Sequence record: OP902294.1
DNA from: Staphylococcus phage BSwM-KMM1
Reading direction: 5' to 3' (one strand)
Length of the DNA stretch: 64,000 nucleotides
In this document: positions 15,613 to 40,976 of the stretch, piece after piece
How the letters are laid out: each line of letters begins with the position of its first letter
How positions within the stretch are numbered: position 1 is the first letter of the stretch
The notes under the pieces: generated by a model
The model's database searches: none
The model's input: the letters and a program-made list of their open reading frames with translations, nothing else
Told to the model about the DNA's origin: nothing
Translations under genes and position numbers: made by a program

Positions 15613-18600
15613 ATGATGGCAATGAATGACGATTATAGATTGGTCTTATCCGGTGATAGTTCAGATTTAGAGAATAGTCTGAAGGCTATAGAACTTTATA
15701 TGGACTCTTTAGAGGCTAAAGATATTGATGCCCCTTTAGATAATTTCTTGAAGAAATTAAAAGTAATTGCTAAAGAAGTTAAAAATGTACAGAATGCAAT
15801 GGATAAACAGGAAGGTAAATCTGTAGTATCTGCTAAAGATATGGATGAGACCATTAAATCTACTCAATCTGCTACGAAACAAATAAATGAGTTGCAGAAA
15901 GCTTTAGACGACCTTCAAAAAGAAAATATATCTAAAGGTATAGCACCTGACCCTGAAGTTGAAAAAGCATACGCTAAGATGAACAAAGTTGTTAAAGAGA
16001 CTAGTGAAAATCTTAGTAATATGTCTAACCAAAAAATAGGTTCGGATGCTAGTATTCAAAATAGAATTAAAGAACAGAAAGTATTAAATAAAGTAACTGA
16101 AGAATACAATAAAATAAGTAAAGACTCTAGTTCTACCCAAGATTATACTAAAAGACTAAGAGCTAATCGTAACATGACTAGAGGGTACATGGAACGTTCA
16201 GAAGGAACAGGACGTTTAACGTATGACCAAGGAGCAAGAGTTAGAAGTGAATTAGGTAAGGTAGATTCTTATGAAAGTCAAAGAAAACAAAACCAACGTA
16301 ACTTAACACAAGCAAGAGAACAGTATAGTAACTACGGAAATCAACAACAAGATTTGACGAAACGAAGAGCTAATGGTCAAATTAATAAAGCCCAATATGA
16401 GCAAGAACTAGCTTCTATTAAACAAGAAATGAAAGCTAGAGAAGAACTTATAACTAACTATGAGAAATTAGGGGCTGAACTAGATAAAACTATTCAGTAC
16501 TATAAAGGCTCAGTTCAGAAAGATTTTCAAACTAGAGATGTAGACCAACAACGAGGAACATTCGGTAGAATGGTTCAAGAGCGTTTACCATCTATTGGTT
16601 CTCATGCTATGATGGGTACGACTGCCATGGCTACAGGTTTATATATGAAGGGTGCTTCATTAAGTGAGACAAATAGACCAATGGTTACATCATTAGGTCA
16701 AAATTCAGACAATATGGATATAGATTCTGTAAGAAATGCATATGGGGACTTGTCAATTGATAACAAGTTAGGTTATAATAGTACTGACATGTTGAAAATG
16801 GCTACTTCATATGAATCTTCTGTAGGACATAAAAGTGATGCGGAAACGGAAGCAGGAGCTAAACAACTTGCAATAGGGGGTCGTTCATTAGGAATACAAG
16901 ACCAAGAAGCTTACCAAGAGTCTATGGGTCAAATAATGCATACTGGTGGAGTAAATTCCGATAACATGAAGGAGATGCAAGATGCATTCCTAGGTGGGAT
17001 TAAACAATCAGGTATGGTTGGTCGTCAAGATGAACAACTTAAAGCATTAGGTTCTATAGCTGAGCAATCAGGAGAAGGAAGAACTTTAACTAAAGACCAA
17101 ATGAGTAATCTTACCGCTATACAATCTACTTTTGCAGAGTCAGGAAGTAAAGGATTACAAGGTGAACAAGGTGCCAATGCTATTAATAGTATAGACCAAG
17201 GACTTAAAAATGGTATGGATAGTTCTTATGCTCGTATAGCAATGGGATGGGGAACACAATACCAAGGTCTTGAAGGTGGATACGATTTACAAAAACGTAT
17301 GGATGAAGGAATATCTAATCCTGAAAACTTGACAGATATGTCTGATATGGCTACTCAAATGGGTGGCAGTGAAAAAGAACAAAAATACCTATTTAATAGA
17401 AGTATGAAAGAGATAGGTGCCAACCTTACTATGGAGCAATCTGATGAAATATTTAAAGATGCTCAATCCGGAAAACTATCTAAAGAAGAGTTAGCTAAAA
17501 AGCTAAGAAAATGGAAGAAGAAGGTAGTAAAGAAGGGAAGATAATGCCACTGATTATAAAGAATCTAAGTCAGGTAAAAATGACCAAAATAAAGCTAAGA
17601 CCGATGATAAAGCAGAGGATACTTATGATATAGCCCAACCACTTAGAGATGCTCACAGTGCCCTGGCAGGTTTACCTGCACCTGTATATCTAGCAATAGG
17701 TGCAATAGGGGCATTTACAGCTTCATTAATTGCATCAGCAGGTCAATTCGGAGCCGGACATCTAATTGGTAAAGGTGCTAAAGGCATGAGAAACAAATGG
17801 AATGATAGAAAAGGAGGTAACTCAGGAGGCGGGATTGCTCCTGGCGGAGGCTCTCCTAAAGGAGGCGGGTCTCCTAAAGGTGGGGGAACTCGTTCTACAG
17901 GTGGTAAAATTCTCGATGGTGCTAAAGGATTAGGAGGATTCCTAATTGGAGCAGGGGTACTAGAGGAGCTAAAGATACCACTAAAAAGCTTTTGAAGGTA
18001 CTAAAAAGTATTTAATAGAGATAATGGTAGAAAAGCTATGGATAAATCTAAAGATATAGCTAAAGGTACTGGTAGCGGGCTTAAAGATTTATATAGTGGT
18101 AGTATACTAGGTAAAGAAAGAAGACAGAACCTAGGAGAGAAAGCTAAAGGACTATACGGTAAATTTGCTGATAAGTTTGGTGATGGAAGTAAAAATGGTA
18201 TTCTATCACAATCACCTAACGCAGGAGGTAGTGGAATAGGTAAGTTAGGAAAACTTGCCGGAGGATTAGGAAAAGGTGCAGGACTCTTAGGAGTTGGAGC
18301 ATCCGCACTATCTCTTATACCTGCTCTAGCATCAGGAGACGATAAAGCTATAGGCAAAGGCGTAGGCTCTATGGGTGGCGGAATGGCAGGTGCATCCGCA
18401 GGAGCTTCTATAGGAGCACTATTCGGAGGAGTAGGCGCAGTACCTGGAGCTTTAATAGGAGGAGCTGTCGGTTCTATCGGTGGAGGAGCTGTCGGTGAAA
18501 AAGTCGGAGATATGGCTAAAAGTGCAAACACTAAAGATGGGTGGAAATTATGGTCTAATGGAGACAAAGACGGTAAGAATAAATTCCAAGACTCTTTATT

Positions 18601-19594
18601 AGGTAAACCTATATCTAAAGCATGGAGTGGTGTAACAGGTCTCTTTGATAATGACGCTGAAGCATCTGAAGAAGATAGTAAAGATAAGAAAAAGGCGTTA
18701 AAGGTGTTAAAGGAGATACTAAGAAGAAAGAAAAAATGACAGCAGAACAACTTAGAGAAAAGAATAATCAATCTGAAACTAAGAACCTTAAAATCTATAG
18801 TGACTTACTTGACAGAGCTCAGAAAATTATTGAGAGTGCTAAAGGTATAAATATAGACGGAGGAACATCTGATGGTGGTTCTGATAGCGGAGGCTCTGCA
18901 TCTGATATAGGTGGAGAAGGCGCAGAGAAAATGTATAAGTTCCTAAAAGTAAAGACCTATCTGATAATCAGGTAGGAGCTATTATGGGTAACTTAAAACA
19001 AGAATCTAATTTAGACCCCAAAGCTGTTAACCAATCTAGTGGTGCATTTGGTATAGCCCAATGGATGGGAGATAGAAAAGCAGGGTTGGATAAATTTGCC
19101 AAAGAAAAAGGTAAAAGAATACTGACCTAGATGTACAGTTAGACTATCTATGGAAAGAGATGCAGTCCGACTATGAAAGTAACAACCTCAAAAATGCAGG
19201 TTGGAGTAAGGACGCAAGCTTAGAGAAGAATACTAATGCATTTGCTACCGGATTTGAGCGTATGGGAGCAAATGAAGCTATGATGAGCACCCGTGTTAAC
19301 AATGCTAAAGAATTCAAGAAGAAATACGGAGGCTCTGGTGGCGGAGGAGGTGGAGGAGCTCTATCTTCTACTTACCAAGAAGCTATGAGTAACCCTGTAT
19401 TAACTACCGGTTCTAATTATAAAGGCTCTAATGACGCTTCTAATGCCTCTACAACTAACAGAATAACAGTTAATGTTAACGTTCAAGGCGGAAATAATCC
19501 TGAAGAAACTGGAGACATTATCGGAGGAAGAATTAGAGAAGTTCTAGACAGTAATATGGATATATTTGCAAATGAATATAAGAGAAGTTATTAA
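15613..19594 (+). CDS. Tail tape-measure protein (~1327 aa) fragmented by at least 5 frameshifts (near 17545, ~17780, ~18000, 18738 and ~19100). It contains Gly-rich repeats (GGGSPKGGGSPKGGG) and a lysozyme/transglycosylase-like segment.
   Basis: The collinear ORFs 15613-17544, 17786-17995, 18038-18739, 18736-18975 and 19160-19594 are all in sense orientation with a coiled-coil N-terminal half. Length and position are as in Twort-like TMPs. The motif ...NLKQESNLDPKAVNQSSGAFGIAQWMGDRKAGLDKF... (18960-19140) resembles phage tail lysozyme domains. Confidence 0.85.
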
Positions 19595-30787: not shown

Positions 30788-32608
30788 ATGAATCAGGTAG
30801 AGAGGGATGCAATAGAAAGTAAATTACAGTCATCTTTAAAGACAGCAACAAGTGAGTACCTAGATAAATTCGGGGATTGGTTTGGTGTCTATAGAAAGAC
30901 AGATGAGAATGATGATGACTATAGAGCAAGGATTATAAAATATTTACTCTTGAAAAGAGGAACTAATAATGCTATAATTGAGGCTATAAAAGATTATTTA
31001 GGTAAAGATGACATTGATGTTAGTGTATATGAACCCTTTACAAATATCTTTTATACTAATAAATCACATTTAAATGGTGAAGACTACTTAATGGGGTACT
31101 ACTATAGATTTGCTGTTATTAACGTTTCTATAGGTGATTACTTCCCTGTAGAGATTATAGATGTAATTAATGAGTTCAAACCTGCAGGTGTAACATTGTA
31201 TGTTACTTATGATGGGGCTTCTACTATTAGAGGTGGGTCAATCATTAAATGGTTGGATGGACTACCTAAAATAGAAACATACCAAGAATACGAAAGATTT
31301 ATAGGATATGATGATACTTTTTATGGTCACATTAATATGAATGAGAGTAAAGATAGTGATAATAGCTCCTCAGACATATTTAAAACGAACCATAGCTTAA
31401 TAAATAGTTCAGATGTTCTAGCAGGCTCTTCTAGTATAGGTAGGCAGTATGTTAACTATGGTTATACAACTTCTTATACCTACAATCCGGATATGACATC
31501 ATCAGTAAACCAAATAAGTGCTAGTACAAACGGAAGAGGTCAGGAAGTACCATATGACTACTATATGTACACTGGTGTACGAAATAACAACACCGTAGAA
31601 CTTGAGATGCAGACATCATCAGGTGTATCTTACTTGTATAATAACTTTAATTTTAGGGACTATATGAGTAAATATAGACCTCAAGTAGATATACAATCAG
31701 ATGAGTCAAGAAAGATAGTATCAGATTATATTAAAGAATTAAGTATTGATTACTATCTTAGTGCCGTAATACCTCCCGATGAAAGTATAGAAATTAAATT
31801 ACAAGTTTATGATTTCTCTATTGATAGATGGCTTACAGTATCAATTAATAATCTATCTTTCTATGAGGAAAATATAGGCAGTAATATTGGTTATGTAAAA
31901 GATTACTTAAACAATGAACTAAATATGTTTACTAGACTAGAAATTAATGCAGGTAGAAGAGATTCCGTAGATATTAAAGTTAACTATTTAGATTTAATGT
32001 TTTATTACTATGAAAGAAATGTTTATACAATAAAACCGTATAAGGCAATAGTAGAAAATTATTTAGATATAACTAGAGAGGCTTATGTAGAAGCATTTAA
32101 AATAGCTTCCTTGAATAACGGAGATATTATATCTAAATCAGGGTTCCAACCTATCGGGTATTTAAGAGTATCGGGAGATATTGATAACTTCAGTAATCAT
32201 ATAGAAATTATTACCACAGACAATAATACGGATAGTATCTCAAGCATTATTTTAAAAGACGACCTTAATAGTTTTATATTATCATATGGTAACGTAAAAA
32301 CTAATATACACAATTTTGTATTAAATAGTGACACTTTAATTTCGAATATTAAATTTGAATATTCTTATTATGGTGATTCCTGGGAAGAACTGACAAAATT
32401 AACTGAAATCCCTGAGGGTGAAACTATAATACCTAATATATTAATAGATTTATATGGATTACAAACAGTAGATTATTCTAATATAAACCCAATGTCAAAT
32501 ATATCGTTACGTTCTATTTGGGATGTTAAATTAGGGAACTTAATAATAAAGAAGGCTCTTTATCAAATATGTCTAACAACTATTTTAATGCTGTATGGCA
32601 AGATATAG
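30788..32608 (+). CDS. Baseplate/tail structural protein (606 aa), possibly continuous with 32569-32901.
   Basis: Large ORF with a weak RBS and an uncertain start, since all three frames are closed in 30710-30740. Confidence 0.5.
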   Translation: MNQVERDAIESKLQSSLKTATSEYLDKFGDWFGVYRKTDENDDDYRARIIKYLLLKRGTNNAIIEAIKDYLGKDDIDVSVYEPFTNIFYTNKSHLNGEDYLMGYYYRFAVINVSIGDYFPVEIIDVINEFKPAGVTLYVTYDGASTIRGGSIIKWLDGLPKIETYQEYERFIGYDDTFYGHINMNESKDSDNSSSDIFKTNHSLINSSDVLAGSSSIGRQYVNYGYTTSYTYNPDMTSSVNQISASTNGRGQEVPYDYYMYTGVRNNNTVELEMQTSSGVSYLYNNFNFRDYMSKYRPQVDIQSDESRKIVSDYIKELSIDYYLSAVIPPDESIEIKLQVYDFSIDRWLTVSINNLSFYEENIGSNIGYVKDYLNNELNMFTRLEINAGRRDSVDIKVNYLDLMFYYYERNVYTIKPYKAIVENYLDITREAYVEAFKIASLNNGDIISKSGFQPIGYLRVSGDIDNFSNHIEIITTDNNTDSISSIILKDDLNSFILSYGNVKTNIHNFVLNSDTLISNIKFEYSYYGDSWEELTKLTEIPEGETIIPNILIDLYGLQTVDYSNINPMSNISLRSIWDVKLGNLIIKKALYQICLTTILMLYGKI

Positions 32609-32901
32609 ATAAGTTAACAGACATAAATTTTAGTTCTATGAAAATAGTTAAAGATACTGAGGGTGGAGTATTCGATGGTGCTACTGGGGAAGTTATTAGA
32701 GCTACAGTCTTAAATGCAGATACCTATACTGACTTAGATAAATTGTCTTATACTCTAAATAAATATATTGAACCATTGACTTTAGGTTCTAGTAGGTTAA
32801 TAAGTGAGCTGAAAGATGAGTTACTAACAACAGAGTCCCTCAATATAGATAACAGAATTAAAGTAGTAGATACCGATACAGAAATTACAATTAATGAATA
32901 A
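32569..32901 (+). CDS. Hypothetical 110-aa protein. It is either separate or the frameshifted C-terminus of the preceding gene.
   Basis: Its 40-nt overlap with the upstream ORF suggests a frameshift join, but an ATG with an AAGAAGG RBS is also present. Confidence 0.4.
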   Translation: MSNNYFNAVWQDIDKLTDINFSSMKIVKDTEGGVFDGATGEVIRATVLNADTYTDLDKLSYTLNKYIEPLTLGSSRLISELKDELLTTESLNIDNRIKVVDTDTEITINE

Positions 32902-33565: not shown

Positions 33566-36500
33566 ATGGCAATTAATTTTAAAGGTTCACCTTATTTAGA
33601 TAGATTTGACCCATCTAAAGATAGAACAAAAGTATTATTTAATCCTGATAGACCTCTACAACAGGCAGAATTAAATGAAATGCAGTCTATAGACCAATAT
33701 TATTTAAAAAATCTAGGAGACGCTATCTTTAAAGATGGAGATAAACAATCAGGACTTGGATTTACATTATCTCAAGACAATGTAGTAACAATAAACCCTG
33801 GTTATGTATATATTAACGGTAAAATACGATATTATGATAATGATGACTCAGTTAAAATAACTGGAGTAGGTAAAGAAACAATAGGTATTAAGTTAACAGA
33901 ACGTATTATAACACCTGATGAGGATGCTAGTTTACTAGACCAAACTAGTGGAGTACCAAGTTACTTTTCTAAAGGTGCAGATAGACTAGAAGAAAAGATG
34001 ACATTAACAGTTAACGACCCTACCTCAGCAACTATATATACCTTTATGGATGGAGACTTATACATCCAATCAACTAACGCTGAAATGGAGAAAATCAATA
34101 AAGTGTTAGCTGAACGTACTTATGATGAGTCAGGTTCATATAAAGTAAGTGGCTTTGAGTTATTCTCAGAAGGCAATGCTGAATCTGATGACCATGTGTC
34201 TGTAGTTGTAGATGCAGGTAAAGCGTATGTAAAAGGTTTTAAAGTAGATAAACCAGTATCAACAAGAATTAGTGTGCCAAAATCTTATGACTTAGGTACA
34301 GCAGAAAATGAAAGTACAATATTTAATAAATCTAATGACTCTATTAGTTTAGCTAATAGCCCAGTAAAAGAAATAAAACGTGTTACAGGGCAAGTACTTG
34401 TTGAGAAAGAACGTGTTACGAGAGGTTCAACAGGGGATAGTCAAGACTACTTATCTAATAACACAGCATTTGAAATTGTAAAAGTTTGGACGGAAACAAG
34501 TCCAGGACAAACAACAAAAGAATATAAACAAGGGGAAGACTTTAGACTAACAGATGGTCAAACAATTGATTGGTCTCCTCAAGGACAAGAACCTAGTGGA
34601 GGTACTTCATACTATGTATCATATAAATACAATAAACGTATGGAAGTTGGAACGGACTATGAAGTAACAACTCAAGGTGAAGGTTTAGGTAAGAGATGGT
34701 ATATTAATTTTACCACTTCAAACGGAGTTAAACCTATTGACCAAACAGTAGTATTAGTAGATTATACCTACTATTTAGCTCGTAAAGATGCTGTATTTAT
34801 TAACCAATACGGTGACATTGCAGTATTACCAGGTGAACCGAATATTATGAGATTGGTTACTCCACCTCTTAATAATGACCCTGAGAACCTGCAGTTAGGT
34901 ACAGTTACAATATTACCCGATTCAGATGAAGCAGTTTGTATTTCATTTGCAGTCACTAGATTATCTATGGAAGACTTACAGAAAGTTAAAACAAGAGTAG
35001 ATAACTTAGAATACAATGAGGCAGTTAACGCTCTTGATGACGGGGCTATGGAAGGGCAAAACCCATTACACTTACGTTCAGTATTTAGTGAAGGTTTCAT
35101 TAGTCTTGATAAATCAGATATTACACATCCTGACTTTGGTGTTGTATTTAGTTTCGAAGATGCAGAAGCTACTCTAGCGTATACAGAAGCAGTAAATCAA
35201 CCTAAGATTATACCGGGAGATACAACAGCTCATGTTTGGGGTAGATTAATATCTGCACCATTTACAGAAGAGCGTACTATTTATCAAGGTCAAGCGTCAG
35301 AAGCATTAAACGTTAACCCTTATAATATCCCTAATAAACAAGGTGTATTGAAACTAACACCTAGTGAGGATAACTGGATTGATACAGAAAATGTAACAAT
35401 AACAGAACAAAAAACTAAGAAAGTAACAATGAAACGATTTTGGAGACATAACGAAAGTTACTTTGGTGAAACAGAGCAAATGCTCTATAATAACTTACAG
35501 TTAGATGCCGGACAAAAATGGGGTAACATGCAATCCAATGCAGGTGAAGCCTATCGTTATGATACAAAATATGGAAGAACAGGAACAATGCTTACTTCAG
35601 GAGGACAACGTACTTTAGAAGAAATGATTGAATTTATTAGAATTCGAGACGTATCCTTTGAAGTTAAAGGTTTAAACCCTAATGATAATAACTTATACCT
35701 ATTATTTGATGGTGTAAGATGTCCTATTACACCTGCAACTGGTTATAGAAAAGGTTCTGAAGATGGAACTATTATGACAGATGCTAAAGGTACAGCTAAG
35801 GGTACATTTACTATTCCTGCAGGTATCCGTTGCGGTAACCGAGAAGTTACACTTAAAAATGCTAACTCTACAAGTGCTACAACTTATACAGCCCAAGGAC
35901 GTAAAAAATCGTTCAAGATATTATTATTAGAACTCGTGTAACAGTAAACTTAGTAGACCCATTAGCACAGTCATTCCAGTATGATGAAAACAGAACTATC
36001 TCATCATTAGGTTTATATTTTGCTTCTAAAGGAGATAAACAATCTAACGTTGTTATCCAAATTAGAGGTATGGGTGACCAAGGTTACCCTAATAAAACAA
36101 TCTATGCAGAGACAGTAATGAATGCGGATGATATTAAGGTATCTAACAATGCTAGTGCTGAAACTAGAGTATACTTTGATGACCCTATGATGGCTGAAGG
36201 CGGTAAGGAATACGCTATTGTTATTATCACTGAGAACAGTGATTACACAATGTGGGTAGGTACTAGAACTAAGCCTAAGATTGATAAGCCTAATGAAGTA
36301 ATTTCCGGTAACCCATATCTACAAGGTGTACTATTCAGTTCATCAAACGCATCAACATGGACTCCTCATCAAAACTCAGACCTTAAATTTGGTATTTATA
36401 CTTCTAAATTTAATGAAACAGCTACAATTGAGTTTGAACCAATTAAAGATGTGTCTGCAGATAGAATAGTTCTTATGTCTACGTACTTAACACCTGAAAG

Positions 36501-37041
36501 AACAGGATGTACTTGGGAAATGAAAATAATTTTAGATGATATGGCATCATCTACAACATTTGACCAATTGAACTGGCAACCTGTTGGTAACTACCAAGAC
36601 TTAGATGTTTTAGGTTTAGCAAGACAAGTTAAATTAAGAGCAACATTTGAATCAAATAGATATATCTCACCATTAATGAGTTCTAGTGATTTAACATTCA
36701 CTACATTCTTAACAGAGCTTACAGGTTCTTATATAGGAAGAGCTATTGATATGACTGAAGCACCTTATAACACAATAAGATTTAGTTATGAAGCTTTCTT
36801 ACCTAGAGGTACTAAGGTAGTTCCTAAATACTCTACAGATGATGGTAAAACTTGGAATACATTTACTAAACCTGCTACAACTACTAAAGCTAACAATGAA
36901 TTTACACGATACACTATTGATGAAAAAGTAAAAGAATCAGGTACAAATACTAAATTACAAGTAAGATTAGATTTATCAACTGAAAATAGCTTTTTACGTC
37001 CTCGTGTTCGTAGACTTATGGTTACTACTAGGGATGAATAA
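33566..37041 (+). CDS. Large adsorption-associated tail/baseplate protein (~1158 aa), with a frameshift in an A6 run near 35905.
   Basis: ORFs 33566-35941 and 36070-37041 are collinear through ..IVQDIIIRTRVTVNLVDPLAQSFQYDENRT... The size matches the ~1152-aa tail protein of K-like phages. Confidence 0.65.
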
Positions 37042-37089
37042 ACTAGAGGGGTTGATTGACCCCTCTTTATTTAATAAGGAGAGATTTAT

Positions 37090-37248
37090 ATGCCTAGAGA
37101 AGTTAGAGACCCTTACTCTCAAGCTAAATTATTTATACCTACAGTTGAAGAGAAATCAATTAAGGAATTAGAAAAAACATACAAAGAAAAGATTAATGAA
37201 GTTGATAGACTTCTTAATGAATTAAAGAAAGAGAGAGGAGACAAATAG
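37090..37248 (+). CDS. Small coiled-coil ORF (52 aa, MPREVRDPYSQAKLFIPTVEEKSIKELEKTYKEKINEVDRLLNELKKERGDK).
   Basis: RBS TAAGGAGAG, then 7 nt, then ATG. The stop codon overlaps the start of the RBP gene. Confidence 0.4.
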   Translation: MPREVRDPYSQAKLFIPTVEEKSIKELEKTYKEKINEVDRLLNELKKERGDK

Positions 37249-39161
37249 ATGGCATTTGAATATACGCCTCTTACTGAATCACAAAAGTTAAAAGATATGT
37301 ACCCTAAGGTTAATGATATAGGTAACTTTTTAAAGACAAAGGTTAACCTAAGTAATATAACGACTATAAGTGGTGCTGACTTTAATAACATCTTATCATC
37401 TATCCCTGATAGCGGTAATTACTATGTTACTACTTCTAAAAACCAACCACCGGAAGAGAGTTGGAATGGGTTCGTTAGACTTGATAAACGAAGTGAAACT
37501 TATTACAAAATATACTATTCACCTTTTAACAGTAATAATATGTATGTTAAGACCTATGCTAATGGTACTGTATACAATTGGGTTAGGTTTAAATTAGATG
37601 AAGGTAGCTTATATGAAGAAGGTAATACACTTAATGTAAAAGAGCTTTCTGAATCTACAACACAATATGCAACTTTATTAAACCCACCGAAAGAAGACTT
37701 AAATACAGGTTGGGTTAGCTATAAAGAAAGTAAAAATAGTATTTCATCTTTAGTAGAATTTAACCCTGTTAACTCTACCTCAACTTTCAAGATGATAAGA
37801 AGACTACCAGTACAAGAACAAAATCCTAACTTACTGAGAGATAGCTTATTTGAGGAAACACAATACAATCTAAAATCATACGAAGATAGAGTAAGTAATT
37901 GGTATTGGGATACAATATATTCATCTGATACCTCAATTACAAACGATATAAGTTTCGAAGGGTATAAAACAGCTAAAGTAACTAATAATGGGACTGCAAA
38001 ATACCCTATTATGAGAAGTAGAGGACTGGAAATAGGTAAGGATGTGCAACCAGGAGAAGAATTAACATTCTCTACTTATTTGTATGTACCTAGTTTAGAA
38101 GCAATGAAAGAGAATGCATTTTACATTCAAATAGATAAATACACTGATGATTTGCTAGATGTTAATACTTCCATCCGAAGTTCTAATTATTATAAAGCAG
38201 ATTTAAAAGAAAAAGAATGGCAGAAAATAACAGTAACAGCTACAGTACCTCCTGTAACAGAAGCTAAATATATAGCATGTGCTATGCGTATTACTACTGT
38301 TAACTCAGGAATAGGGACAGATATGACAGGTTACTATGCTTTACCTAAATTAGAAAAAGGCAATAAAGCTACACCTTTCATAACACATAAGGATGATAAA
38401 GTACAATATGACGAAATTTGGTCTAATTGGATAGAGAATGTCGATGAACAATCAATCTTAAATAATTATACTTCAGATATAAATACAAATAACTACTTTA
38501 AGTATGCATGGTTTAAAGATGAAGTAGGGGACTTAACACTTAAAGACTTAATTATGACAGTACCACAGGGATTCCACACTTTTTATTGTCAAGGTAGTAT
38601 TGAAGGTACACCGAGAAACCGTTCTATAAGAGGTACGATACAAGTAGACTATGACAAAGGAGACCCAAATAGTACTAATAGATTTATTAATGTACAGTTT
38701 ACAGATAGTCAAGGTCTAAACTACACCCTCTATTATGGAGGTCACAATCAAGGATGGAAACCTATAAGACAGCAAAAAGTAGCTACACATTTATGGGAAG
38801 GTACATTCGATTACAATAGTAAAGAGACATTAACTCTATCAGACTCTATTTTAAACTATGATATTTTAGAAATAACTTACTTAACTCAATCAGCAGGTCA
38901 TTATAAAGTAGCAGAGTTAGATATGAGACCCCTAACAACTCCGTTCTTATATCTCAGAGATTTTAACCTATCTAATTCGGCTACAGGCTCAGGAGTAGAC
39001 TTTTTGAAGGGTACTTAACATTCCCTACTAATACTACTGCCAAAGCAGGAATGGTTAAAATGGTATCCCTAGATGGAACTACGAATACGACATCAGTACG
39101 TTCTTGGAACGCTGATAATGTAATAACAATATATAGAATAATAGGAATTAATACATTATAA
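37249..39161 (+). CDS. Receptor-binding / tail fibre protein (~637 aa), frameshifted in a T-run near 39010.
   Basis: ORF 37249-39018 continues in another frame as ..LTFPTNTTAKAGMVKMVSLDGTTNTTSVRSWNADNVITIYRIIGINTL*. The size matches the ~640-aa RBP of K-like phages. Confidence 0.6.
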
Positions 39162-39175
39162 GGAGACATAAAACA

Positions 39176-39537
39176 TGGTAGTAAAATACGATATAGGTGA
39201 AGATGAATTAGTTTTACACTTAAGATATGGTAAATATATAACAGGGTTTACTGTCTACGGAGGTTACTCAGAAGAAAACGGACAAGTTAAAGTAAAGAGA
39301 GATTTTACCTCCTTACTTTTTTGATGACTTTGCTGTCAGTAAGTACCTATACTACGAAAAACCGGAAGAAGTTATAGAAAATAAAGATTATACTCCCCTA
39401 ATTACGGTAGTGTAGAAGATGAGACAAGTAACCCTCCAGTTGAAGAAACAGTATCTAAAGAAGAATACGATAAGTTAAAAGAAGAAATGGATGAAATTAA
39501 AAAACTTCTAGAACAATTAATGAAACAAAAGGGGTAA
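39176..39537 (+). CDS. Small hypothetical protein (~120 aa) with two frameshifts.
   Basis: Collinear fragments MVVKYDIGEDELVLHLRYGKYITGFTVYGGYSEENGQVKVKRDFTSLLF.. / ..EETVSKEEYDKLKEEMDEIKKLLEQLMKQKG*. RBS AAGGAGACAT. Confidence 0.3.
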
Positions 39538-39543
39538 TAGCCA

Positions 39544-40920
39544 ATGGCATTAAATTTCACTACAATAACTGACAACAATGTTATTAAGGATTTGACAGTT
39601 CAAGTAAATAACATTGGGGAAGAATTAACAAAAGAAAGAAATATATTTGACATTACAGATGACTTAGTATATAATTTTAATAAGTCACAGAGAGTTAAGT
39701 TAACAGATGACAAAGGACTAGCTAAAGCCTATGGAAATATAACTACTCTTAAGGACATAAAAGAGCCAGGTTACTATTATATTAATGCAAGAGCCTTTGC
39801 AATGTTAACAGATAAACCTGATATAGAATCTATTGATGTAGTACTTCAGGTACTACCTTTAGAATCTTCTAACCGAGTAGTACAACACTTATATACTTTG
39901 TCTACTAATAATAGTCAAATTAAGACTATATATAGATATGTTTCAGGAAATTCAAGTTCAGAGTGGCAGTTTATTCAAGGACTACCAAGTAATAAAAATT
40001 CTGTTATATCAGGTTCTAACTTAGAAGATTTAACTTCCCCTGGAGTATACTTTGTAACAGGTATGACAGGCGGTATGCCTGATGGAGTTAGCTCAGGGTT
40101 CTTAGAATTAAATATAGATGCTAATGATAATAGATTAGCTAAGGTAACTGATATTGAAACAGGTAAACAATATACTAACATTAAAAAATCTGCCGGTGTT
40201 TATATAGGATGGGTAAAAGAGTTTGAACCTAAGGATATGGAAAAATACTTTATAAGTAGTATAAGAGAAGATGGTAATGCTTCTTTTCCTCTGCTAGTAT
40301 ACGCTAGTGATAACGTCACTTTCCAACAAGCTGTTTTAAATCATGTAGATAAAACAGGGCAAACAACGTTCACTTTCTATGTTCAGGGAGGCGTTGCAGG
40401 CTCTCCTATGACAAACAGTTGTAGAGGTATATTCATGTCAGATACCCCTGCCACTTCTAGTTTCCATGGTGTTTACAATGCAATAGGTACAGATGGTAGA
40501 AATGTTACAGGGTCTGTAAGTAGTGGAAACTGGACAACACCTAAAGCTTCTCCTTCCTATAAAGAATTATGGACTGGGGCACAATCATTTTCCTCTATTG
40601 GAACTTCCAAGAAGTTAGAAGACGATATAAGTAATTATTCATATGTAGAGGTTTATACTAAACATAAAACTGTAGAGAAAACTAAGGGAAATGATGATAC
40701 AGGAACTATTTGCCATAAGTTTTATTTAGATGGTAGTAAAACTTATGTTTGTTCAGGAACTTTTGTTTCAGGAGAAAAAACAGACAAAACAGTACCTGTT
40801 ACAGAATTTTATAGAGTAGGTATTAATTTTTCAGGAACAACTTGGAAAGTAGTAGATAGTGCAGTACAAAATAATAAAACTCAATACGTCACAAGAATTA
40901 TAGGTATTAATATGCCATAG
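39544..40920 (+). CDS. Second receptor-binding / tail fibre protein (458 aa).
   Basis: Intact ORF. Its size and position match the 458-aa RBP/tail-fibre gene that ends the structural module of K-like phages. Confidence 0.6.
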   Translation: MALNFTTITDNNVIKDLTVQVNNIGEELTKERNIFDITDDLVYNFNKSQRVKLTDDKGLAKAYGNITTLKDIKEPGYYYINARAFAMLTDKPDIESIDVVLQVLPLESSNRVVQHLYTLSTNNSQIKTIYRYVSGNSSSEWQFIQGLPSNKNSVISGSNLEDLTSPGVYFVTGMTGGMPDGVSSGFLELNIDANDNRLAKVTDIETGKQYTNIKKSAGVYIGWVKEFEPKDMEKYFISSIREDGNASFPLLVYASDNVTFQQAVLNHVDKTGQTTFTFYVQGGVAGSPMTNSCRGIFMSDTPATSSFHGVYNAIGTDGRNVTGSVSSGNWTTPKASPSYKELWTGAQSFSSIGTSKKLEDDISNYSYVEVYTKHKTVEKTKGNDDTGTICHKFYLDGSKTYVCSGTFVSGEKTDKTVPVTEFYRVGINFSGTTWKVVDSAVQNNKTQYVTRIIGINMP

Positions 40921-40946
40921 ACTAGGATAAACTCCTAGTCTTTTTT
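40921..40946 (+). terminator. Rho-independent terminator at the end of the structural module.
   Basis: ACTAGGA-taaac-TCCTAGT stem followed by CTTTTTTC. Confidence 0.7.
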
Positions 40947-40947
40947 C

Positions 40948-40976
40948 TTGACTTAATAAGCATTCTGTGCTATACT
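40948..40976 (+). promoter_or_regulatory. Sigma-A-type promoter: TTGACT, 17-nt spacer, TGcTATACT.
   Basis: Near-consensus elements ~30 nt upstream of the helicase gene RBS. Confidence 0.65.

Follow-up and report, generated by a model that had tools for sequence, protein, structure and literature searches.

In phage 812, the baseplate positions of two receptor-binding proteins (RBPs), termed RBP1 and RBP2, have been determined by cryo-EM, a role in the baseplate has been assigned to the coupler, and a sequence of teichoic-acid binding has been proposed, while both proteins are still termed "putative" receptor-binding proteins (PMC13433997). For phiSA012, whose ORF103 and ORF105 are the experimental basis for the naming of these RBPs, ORF103 has been assigned to alpha-GlcNAc on wall teichoic acid (WTA) and ORF105 to the WTA backbone (Takeuchi et al. 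2016, as cited in bioRxiv 10.1101/339549). Sera against both proteins were used in neutralisation tests of phiSA012, the related phage phiSA039 was fully blocked by anti-ORF105, and mutations accompanying host adaptation in phiSA012 fell in ORF103, with host-range mutations also in ORF99, the arm scaffold (bioRxiv 10.1101/339549). The 458-aa protein of phage K prefers glycosylated WTA, the opposite of phiSA012 (Krusche et al.). That work assayed residues 50-458 of the K, Stab20, PG-2021_10 and PG-2021_17 proteins as GFP fusions, found that the binding patterns of GFP-RBPs varied among RBP subclusters, and defined a "PG2021-17-like" subcluster for the 458-aa RBP. The labels "RBP1" and "RBP2" have opposite senses in the phage 812 paper (PMC13433997) and in Krusche et al., and we speak here of a long and a short RBP. 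We had taken the "RBP1" of Krusche et al. for the long protein and dropped this reading, since the constructs in their Table S3 span residues 50-458 and show that it is the 458-aa protein.

The nearest relatives of the locus described here are PG-2021_17 and its siblings PG-2021_8, _16, _19, _64 and _86 (Goller et al. 2021, PMC8629997). In that study, the widest host range belonged to PG-2021_17 (32 strains of 18 species). Staphylococcus phage BSwM-KMM1 (KMM1) forms plaques on 16 strains, adsorbs by up to 99% in 5 min and has a high burst size (BSwM KMM1 paper).

Gene order and boundaries of the cassette

The window analysed here is the whole stretch of 64,000 nucleotides from KMM1 (record OP902294.1). 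At 37090-40920 it carries four plus-strand genes running in one direction, which we read, with a probability of about 0.9, as the adsorption cassette of the peripheral baseplate in a K-like (Twortvirinae) myovirus, the breaks in the long RBP and coupler genes being non-biological. The same four genes stand in the same order, between tripod and helicase A, in phage 812 (gp120-gp123; PDB 9EUF; EMBO J 2026, PMC13433997). The order in the window is arm segment, tripod, 52-aa ORF, long RBP, coupler, short RBP and helicase A, a tblastn search with phage 812 gp118-gp124 found order and strand unchanged, and the annotated order of phiSA012 ORF102-105 and phage 812 gp120-123 agrees. The earlier note had proposed from the sequence that two RBP genes here match K-like phages in size and order, and the annotated comparators agree with it: both genes encode full-length homologues of phiSA012 ORF103/ORF105 and phage 812 gp121/gp123, in the same order. 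Synteny and sequence point to orthology with ORF103 and ORF105, the alignments gave 57% and 81% identity, respectively, and similarity to known Kayvirus RBPs, whose absence would have spoken against the proposal, was thus found. Long ORFs in DNA of 32% GC, with E values of about 1e-233 and 1e-255 to structurally solved baseplate proteins of phage 812, exceed by far what chance would give. The minus-strand ORFs of the interval (62-90 aa) sit within plus-strand genes having full-length homology.

The label "K-like" is safe for this phage: megablast against Kayvirus records gave about 80-90% over most of the 64-kb window, to be read beside the ICTV genus rule of at least 70% over the whole genome. 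For the nearest relatives, the database classification stops at Twortvirinae. In the related Herelleviridae member Listeria phage A511, whose host genus differs, gp108 resembles the short RBP only at N-terminal residues 14-141 (35% identity), and its receptor-binding C-terminal parts are unrelated in sequence.

Upstream of the cassette lies the gene for the tripod protein (33566..37041, plus strand), the homologue of phage 812 gp119 and phiSA012 ORF101, with 92-96% amino acid identity to gp119 in two frames. It reads as ORFs of 791 and 323 aa, with a 1-base deletion in an A-run at about 35903-35908. The tripod protein adds a third putative receptor-binding component to the baseplate; its phage 812 counterpart contains several carbohydrate-binding-module-like domains and turns towards the cell (PMC13433997). 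DUF4815 is present in relatives of this protein. The small ORF seen earlier at the start of the cassette is indeed present, as a conserved 52-aa frame (37090..37248, plus strand) homologous to phage 812 gp120 and phiSA012 ORF102 (PHROG 1074, E 8e-22). Its C-terminal half is charged and helical, and it is 100% identical to the PG-2021_17 protein, 98% to ORF102 and 88% to gp120.

Terminator-like hairpins bracket the cassette. A GC-rich hairpin with a 9-bp stem (5 G-C pairs) and a T-rich tail lies between the tripod gene and the cassette (37045..37066, plus strand), and the hairpin scan found a second one with a T-run directly after the short RBP stop (40919..40941, plus strand); the region holds five such terminator-like sites, versus 1.5 expected. 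A promoter-like site for the helicase gene lies 3' of the second hairpin, at 40948-40976. The promoter scan gave 20 sites, versus 19.6 in shuffled sequence, and with no excess we claim none for the cassette.

Interrupted frames of the long RBP and coupler genes

The long RBP gene ("RBP1" in phage 812 naming; 37249..39161, plus strand) encodes the homologue of phiSA012 ORF103 and phage 812 gp121. phmmer against the PDB matched 9euf_8 over residues 1-635 of 637 (E 3e-233), PHROG 2665 matched at E 9e-272, and the protein is 96.7% identical to that of PG-2021_17 and about 57% identical to ORF103 and gp121. This full-length homology places it in the Twortvirinae gp121/ORF103 family, and the broken frame described below, which we judge to be a Nanopore artefact, counts against the sequence record and not against the family membership. 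Of the sizes given earlier, 637 and 458 aa, the 458-aa ORF is exact at 39544..40920 and the long gene does start at 37249, but the 637-aa frame is not open. As written, the gene is an ORF of 589 codons (37249..39018), and its last 48 codons are found in the +1 frame, up to a stop at 39159-39161. The apparent frameshift site is a T5 homopolymer (39001..39005, plus strand) that is T6 in PG-2021_17 and PG-2021_19; adding one T yields a 637-aa long RBP, and an uninterrupted frame of about 637-643 codons is what this family would lead one to expect. The final 48 residues in the corrected frame, which include FFEGYLTFPTNTTAK, form the conserved C-terminus, and the tip is 99% identical to that of PG-2021_16.

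The coupler gene (39175..39537, plus strand) encodes the homologue of phage 812 gp122 and phiSA012 ORF104, with DUF2977, and reads as 121 aa after three bases are restored. It corresponds to the ORF of about 120 aa that had been described as flanking the RBP pair; it actually sits between the two RBP genes and is broken twice: an AG repeat at about 39296-39302 lacks 2 nt and a C-run at 39395-39398 lacks 1 nt, which as written leaves a 49-aa ORF. We tested the corrected protein for the family traits, namely DUF2977, a length of about 121-124 aa and a gene between both RBP genes. It showed Pfam DUF2977 (E 4e-6, above cutoff) and PHROG 2671 (E 5e-45), with 98% identity to PG-2021_17 and 62% to gp122, and as corrected it belongs to the coupler family, its written frame being broken.

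The breaks in both genes are almost certainly under-calls of homopolymers and short repeats by Nanopore sequencing, a judgement that we base on the window-wide deletion pattern together with an assembly from R9.4.1 data only. KMM1 was sequenced on MinION R9.4.1 alone, with Guppy base-calling and Flye assembly (BSwM KMM1 paper). Between 34 and 44 kb, alignment-end gaps aside, all indels relative to PG-2021_17 are deletions in the window and fall in homopolymers or, once, in the AG repeat; throughout the window, runs of at least five bases show 63 one-base deletions versus 2 insertions, and runs of eight identical bases number 0, versus 6 in the relative. Splits affect about 30 of the 53 ORFs of at least 100 aa, among them those for the tape measure, tripod, helicase, DNA polymerase and RNR. 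The reading frames of the PG-2021 phages are intact. The long RBP and coupler genes differ in the same way from those of phage 812, where such interruptions by sequencing errors are not seen. By this verdict, which is statistical and comparative, the long RBP and the coupler are almost certainly made intact in the real phage, at 637 and 121 aa.

Were the frameshift real, the long RBP would end at residue 589 and lose the end of its tip domain, the coupler would be dead and adsorption would proceed mainly via the short RBP and the tripods. The 589-aa product is annotated in the deposited record (100% identical to FMLHJGGC_00218, as the 458-aa product is to FMLHJGGC_00220), and dependence on a single RBP is conceivable, since anti-ORF105 serum alone blocks phiSA039 (bioRxiv 10.1101/339549). 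However, the same class of deletion splits essential genes too in a viable and fast-adsorbing phage, the ratio of 63 to 2 is the signature of R9.4.1 under-calling, and the out-of-frame tail still codes a conserved C-terminus close to that of the relatives, which makes a real truncation very improbable. Two isoforms of the long RBP, produced at the T-run by programmed frameshifting or transcriptional slippage, are scarcely credible: the break does sit in a slippery-looking T-run, but in all close relatives the gene is read in one frame and the run has an extra T, 63 events of the same type are spread across the window, this site among them, and such a mechanism is not reported for these genes in the literature examined.

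Domain build and mosaic composition

The genes flanking the cassette are 92-99% identical to those of phage 812, versus 56-57% for the long RBP, about 62% for the coupler and 79.5% for the short RBP. Relative to PG-2021_17, the cassette has 96.3% nucleotide identity, with 98% for the coupler protein and 91.7% for the short RBP. By sequence, the cassette is a local divergence hot-spot and a mosaic.

In the long RBP, the wing domain (about residues 201-372; 37849..38364, plus strand) is a divergent allele of the carbohydrate-binding-module-like domain, which is 27% identical to the wings of phage 812 and phiSA012 and 85% to that of Stab22; the tip is about 54% identical to that of ORF103 and about 55% to that of phage 812. 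Pfam returned no family for the corrected long RBP or for the wing alone, and CBM_4_9, which matches the phage 812 wing at E 6e-7, did not match the wing of this window. Since Pfam gave no family, we turned to HHalign and structure prediction for the fold of the wing. HHalign aligned it with the K-type wing at a probability of 99.3% (E 8e-21). The AF2 model of the long RBP, a monomer without the last 48 tip residues, was of moderate confidence, with a pLDDT of 72 and a pTM of 0.37 and the wing at pLDDT 78-92, and Foldseek matched it best to 9euf_8 (E 4e-62) and next to CBM16/22/4 modules at TM 0.54-0.65. The predicted build is thus that of the phage 812 protein, with an antenna, tower domains, a lateral carbohydrate-binding-module-like wing and a tip.

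Among 120 homologues, wing and antenna each occur in two types and in all combinations, and phage CF7 combines a K-type wing with the tip type of this window. The long RBP is a mosaic: its antenna is of a common type, its wing is a non-K allele and its tip is of the PG-2021_17/CF7 type. We also considered its placement in the "PG2021-10-like" RBP2 cluster of Krusche et al., where it does not obviously belong (62% identity overall, 32% in the wing); the PG-2021_10 long protein is 84% identical to its phage 812 counterpart.

The short RBP gene (39544..40920, plus strand) is intact, and its 458-aa product belongs to the Twortvirinae gp123/ORF105/gp144 family of phages 812, phiSA012 and K. It matched 9euf_5 over residues 1-458 at E 3e-255, and its residues 228-458 align with phage K gp144 (PDB 5M9F, two C-terminal domains) at E 5e-127 and about 80% identity. 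Residues 337-458 match Pfam ORF68_C (PF23624; E 1e-58), a tip domain shared with RBP2 of phage 812. The protein is 80.6% identical to ORF105, 79.5% to gp123 and 91.7% to that of PG-2021_17, and all 38 amino acid differences from the last lie within a patch of residues 176-327 (40069..40524, plus strand), recognised as a cluster of substitutions, with the tip domain 100% identical. The patch covers approximately the penultimate domain, and in the window this is the region of gp144 that it replaces. At the nucleotide level, this region has 85 substitutions in 500 nt relative to PG-2021_17, and a comparison with 50,697 phage records gave the patch a best match of only 81%. Sequencing noise was considered as the source of the 85 substitutions at 40000-40500 and rejected, as the frame is kept and an independent metagenomic protein, P0141, shares 96% identity with the patch, versus 63-86% in the flanks. 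The short RBP thus reads as PG-2021_17-like apart from a recombinant patch of 150 residues from an unsampled lineage. A further difference lies outside the cassette: the C-terminal segment of about 118 aa in the arm scaffold of PG-2021_17 and PG-2021_19 is missing from that of the window.

Receptor assignment, host range and meaning

By homology with phage 812, the long RBP would form a winged trimeric fibre of 637 aa and the short RBP one of 458 aa with the same build minus the wing, both binding receptors, while the coupler of 121 aa would structurally resemble a tail-fibre chaperone. Six trimers of each fibre type would be suspended from the arm ends of the baseplate, with the coupler bridging long to short fibre on alternate arms. 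Binding to wall teichoic acid may then reorient the fibres, leading to baseplate rearrangement and sheath contraction.

The earlier note had given one RBP to the WTA backbone and the other to glycosylated WTA. This division is a result from phiSA012, and it cannot be transferred to the alleles of this window as judged from their sequences, because the wing and tip are only 27% and about 54% identical to those of ORF103, because CBM_4_9 matches the wing of phage 812 and not this one, because the 150-residue patch of the short RBP differs even from the closest relative, and because the published binding data differ between phages, phage K being opposite to phiSA012.

The same note had called the two proteins host-range determinants. 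It is alternatively conceivable, though unlikely, that both are genuine fibres and that the tripod, the arm scaffold or post-adsorption steps chiefly decide the host range. The domains and re-orientation of the phage 812 tripod (PMC13433997), the ORF99 mutations of phiSA012 (bioRxiv 10.1101/339549), the short form of the arm scaffold in KMM1 and not in its nearest relatives, and RBP binding patterns that in some cases disagree with infection patterns (Krusche et al.) speak for this view. However, within the tail module it is the RBP cassette that diverges most, by a wide margin, with the tripod conserved at 92-96%, a pattern expected of specificity determinants; antibodies against the phiSA012 homologues neutralise infection (bioRxiv 10.1101/339549), and RBP binding largely agrees with phage behaviour (Krusche et al.).

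The biological significance of the locus is small; the dual-RBP cassette of K-like phages is already established genetically, biochemically and structurally. The comparison gives names to genes that are listed as hypothetical proteins in the KMM1 record, one of them in truncated form. In the public KMM1 genome, homopolymer errors occur about once per kilobase, and polishing has to precede any RBP-based host-range prediction (e.g. PhARIS). Caution is also needed with the "RBP1" and "RBP2" labels, which conflict across key papers, and with the phiSA012 receptor assignments, which are unfit for divergent wing, tip and patch alleles. Finally, and as a speculative suggestion that we consider unlikely, KMM1 may have been retargeted by a three-way recombination of its adsorption module, which would join a PG-2021_17-type long RBP with a non-K wing allele, a short RBP that received its penultimate domain, and not its tip, from an unsampled lineage, and an arm scaffold of the short form. 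Should the patch by itself shift the host range, the short RBP would have its specificity site in the penultimate domain and not in the ORF68_C tip.

Identity and arrangement of the receptor-binding cassette

The earlier note had placed two receptor-binding protein (RBP) genes at 37249-40920, and the pair was correctly recognised, as shown by full-length matches to PDB 9EUF and by a shared gene order. Indeed, the long protein matched 9EUF chain 8, a 640-aa protein annotated in the phage 812 record as receptor-binding protein 1 (gp121), over its whole length (E 3e-233), and the 458-aa short RBP matched chain 5, the phage 812 RBP2 (gp123), with an E-value of 3e-255. The short RBP also matched 5M9F, a crystal structure comprising both C-terminal domains of phage K gp144 (E 5e-127), and its last 122 residues constitute the Pfam ORF68_C domain (E 1e-58). 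The long and short RBPs are distant paralogues.

The genes run in the order arm segment, tripod, small ORF, long RBP, coupler, short RBP and helicase A, as in phiSA012 (ORF100-106), phage 812 (gp118-124), MCE-2014 and Stab22, and the large ORFs of the interval (GC 32%) all lie on the plus strand. In the ORF list, the second, 458-aa gene (39544..40920, +) and the small upstream 52-aa ORF (37090..37248, +) agree exactly with their description in the note. Terminator-like hairpins were found on the plus strand directly before the small ORF (37045-37066) and directly after the short RBP gene (40919-40941), while promoter-like matches in a scan of the region showed no excess over shuffled sequence.

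The 52-aa ORF belongs to PHROG 1074, a family without known function, and shares 88-100% identity with phage 812 gp120, phiSA012 ORF102 and the copy in the close relative PG-2021_17. Identity of this ORF is 98-100% across phages whose adjoining long RBP is only 57% identical, and it therefore marks the conserved left boundary of a variable cassette. The phage 812 baseplate structure contains no assignment for this protein.

Frame breaks in the long RBP and coupler genes

The first gene had been described as encoding about 637 aa, and an ORF of about 120 aa as flanking the pair. As written, the long RBP frame contains only 589 codons (37249..39018, +), and the coupler region, which lies between the two RBP genes, holds only a 49-aa ORF (39175..39324, +) in place of the expected open frame. 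Reading of the DNA and alignment traced both departures to lost bases. The T-run at 39001-39005 has five T residues in the window versus six in the nearest relative, and past this run the +1 frame carries the 48 remaining codons of the long RBP, up to the stop at 39159-39161. In the ORF that separates the two large genes, two bases are gone from an AG repeat (~39296-39302) and one from a C-run (39395-39398). When these four bases were restored, proteins of 637 aa and 121 aa were obtained, with 96.7% and 98.3% identity to the intact PG-2021_17 ORFs, so that the claimed length of the first gene holds once the T is returned. The corrected middle protein contains DUF2977 (Pfam) and shares 62% identity with phage 812 gp122, the coupler, which resembles a tail-fibre chaperone and joins RBP1 to RBP2 on alternate arms (PMC13433997).

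The conserved C-terminus of the long RBP is still encoded in the out-of-frame tail, and the losses extend far beyond this gene. Gaps at the two alignment ends aside, all of the indels relative to PG-2021_17 between 34 and 44 kb are deletions in the window, located at homopolymers or, once, at an AG repeat. Against PG-2021_19, another of the nearest relatives, runs of at least five bases across the whole window (1-64000) showed 63 one-base deletions and only 2 insertions. Runs of eight identical bases number 0 in the window versus 6 in the relative, with a downward shift for runs of 6 and 7 bases as well. Of 53 ORFs with at least 100 aa and an intact frame in the relative, about 30 are interrupted in the window, including those for the tape measure, tail lysin, tripod, both helicases, DNA polymerase and the ribonucleotide reductase large subunit.

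The 589-aa and 458-aa products are each 100% identical to a protein deposited for BSwM-KMM1. This phage (BSwM KMM1, OP902294) came from Baltic Sea water, with a Staphylococcus from the jellyfish Aurelia aurita as isolation host, and its sequence derives solely from a MinION R9.4.1 flow cell, with Guppy base-calling and Flye assembly, no short-read polishing being described (Stante et al. 2023). The phage is fully viable: it adsorbs by up to 99% within 5 min and forms plaques on its own host and 15 further Staphylococcaceae strains (Stante et al. 2023). Given the deletion pattern, the Nanopore-only assembly and this viability, a real truncation or programmed frameshift is very unlikely; the breaks in the long RBP and coupler genes are almost certainly sequencing artefacts. 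The window-wide pattern is one of systematic homopolymer under-calling that fits the KMM1 assembly, and the 259 ORFs published for this genome are probably too many, owing to the fragmentation.

Divergence and modular composition

The nearest genomes, PG-2021_8, _16, _17, _19, _64 and _86 (96-98% DNA identity), are Swiss wastewater isolates. Propagation hosts of the PG-2021 relatives were S. xylosus, S. equorum, S. succinus and Mammaliicoccus vitulinus, and PG-2021_17 showed the widest host range of the study (PMC8629997). Relative to phage 812, the tripod, arm segment and helicase flanks retain 92-99% protein identity, whereas the long RBP, coupler and short RBP fall to 56%, 62% and 79.5%, so that divergence in this genome region peaks in the cassette.

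Overall, the long RBP shares 57% identity with phiSA012 ORF103; the figure is 70-93% for the first 200 residues, 27% for the wing (residues 201-372) and ~54% for the tip. Pfam did not recognise the window wing, whereas that of phage 812 is a CBM_4_9 domain; the window and K-type wings are homologous by HHalign (probability 99.3%), and the AF2 model confidently predicts a beta-sandwich for which Foldseek returned CBM16, CBM22 and CBM4 modules. Among 120 homologues (P0002-P0120 among them), most combinations of two antenna types with at least four wing types are represented, and several tip types vary independently of these; phage CF7, for instance, joins a K-type wing to the tip type of the window (95% identity). 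Judged from these sequences, the modules of the long RBP family assort independently, an explicit statement of which we did not find in the literature consulted on these proteins.

For the 458-aa RBP, Krusche et al. had already defined a 'PG2021-17-like' subcluster. The short RBP of the window equals the PG-2021_17 protein apart from 38 substitutions, all clustered in residues 176-327 (40069-40524, +). At the DNA level, no sequence among 50,697 phage records exceeds 81% identity to this patch, and a metagenomic protein from a 5.1-kb contig (P0141) is 96% identical within it and only 63-86% in its flanks, identifying the patch as a tract acquired by recombination from a lineage not yet sampled. 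The tract corresponds approximately to the penultimate domain, not to the ORF68_C tip.

Elsewhere in the window, the arm scaffold gene (30788-32901; homologue of phage 812 gp117 and phiSA012 ORF99) is without its C-terminal domain, ending ~118 aa (~340 bp) earlier than in phage 812, PG-2021_17 and PG-2021_19. Residues 288-464 of the gp117 C-terminal fragment, an internal stretch of the query, had no match in the window. Since the short form is contiguous in PSU5, vB_Sau_P68, PG-2021_10, OPT-SC01 and others, it represents a natural long/short polymorphism; in phage 812 this domain was tentatively positioned at the arm end, near the RBP1 attachment (PMC13433997). Inside the tape-measure gene, 17832-19328 aligned poorly or not at all with PG-2021_19, with 89% identity over 18140-18860 and unaligned gaps on both sides, and overlapping ORFs of 233-256 aa occupy both strands at 18001-18771.

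Receptor preference and baseplate function

By analogy, the putative receptor-binding role of both proteins rests on phiSA012 data and GFP-fusion binding assays. Sera against phiSA012 ORF103 and ORF105 were used in neutralisation tests, the anti-ORF105 serum completely blocking the phiSA012-related phage phiSA039, and ORF103 mutations accompany phiSA012 adaptation to resistant hosts (bioRxiv 10.1101/339549). Following the mechanism described for phage 812 (PMC13433997), six trimers of each fibre would be anchored by their antenna domains to the six arms of the baseplate, at the outer ends, with the long fibres spanning to the neighbouring arm and touching the short fibres directly or via the coupler. 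Upon cell-wall contact the long fibres would bind teichoic acid first; the short fibres may then rotate and bind, the tripods may flip, and the baseplate would pass from threefold to sixfold symmetry, releasing sheath contraction.

The division proposed in the earlier note, with one protein for the WTA backbone and one for glycosylated WTA, goes beyond the evidence when carried to this phage, as its alleles are far from the tested ones and the published preferences conflict. For phiSA012, Azam et al., citing Takeuchi et al., give alpha-GlcNAc on WTA as the ligand of ORF103 and the backbone as the probable ligand of ORF105. For phage K, Krusche et al. reported stable binding of the 458-aa protein (constructs of residues 50-458), with a preference for glycosylated WTA and also binding to S. 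epidermidis GroP-WTA, and reversible binding of the other RBP, presumably the long protein (construct without residue range), with a preference for unglycosylated RboP-WTA; these preferences disagree with those for phiSA012. The labels are likewise reversed, RBP1 being the 640-aa protein in the phage 812 structure paper and the 458-aa protein in Krusche et al. RBP subclusters differ in binding pattern (Krusche et al.), and we found no binding data in the literature for the wing type of the window; the tested long RBP of PG-2021_10 is of the K type, being 84% identical to the phage 812 protein and, within the wing, 32% identical to that of the window.

The gene pair is already well understood, and the genome is published but poorly annotated. 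The practical value of the analysis thus lies in the annotation and in the warnings on assembly errors and on the RBP1/RBP2 naming clash.
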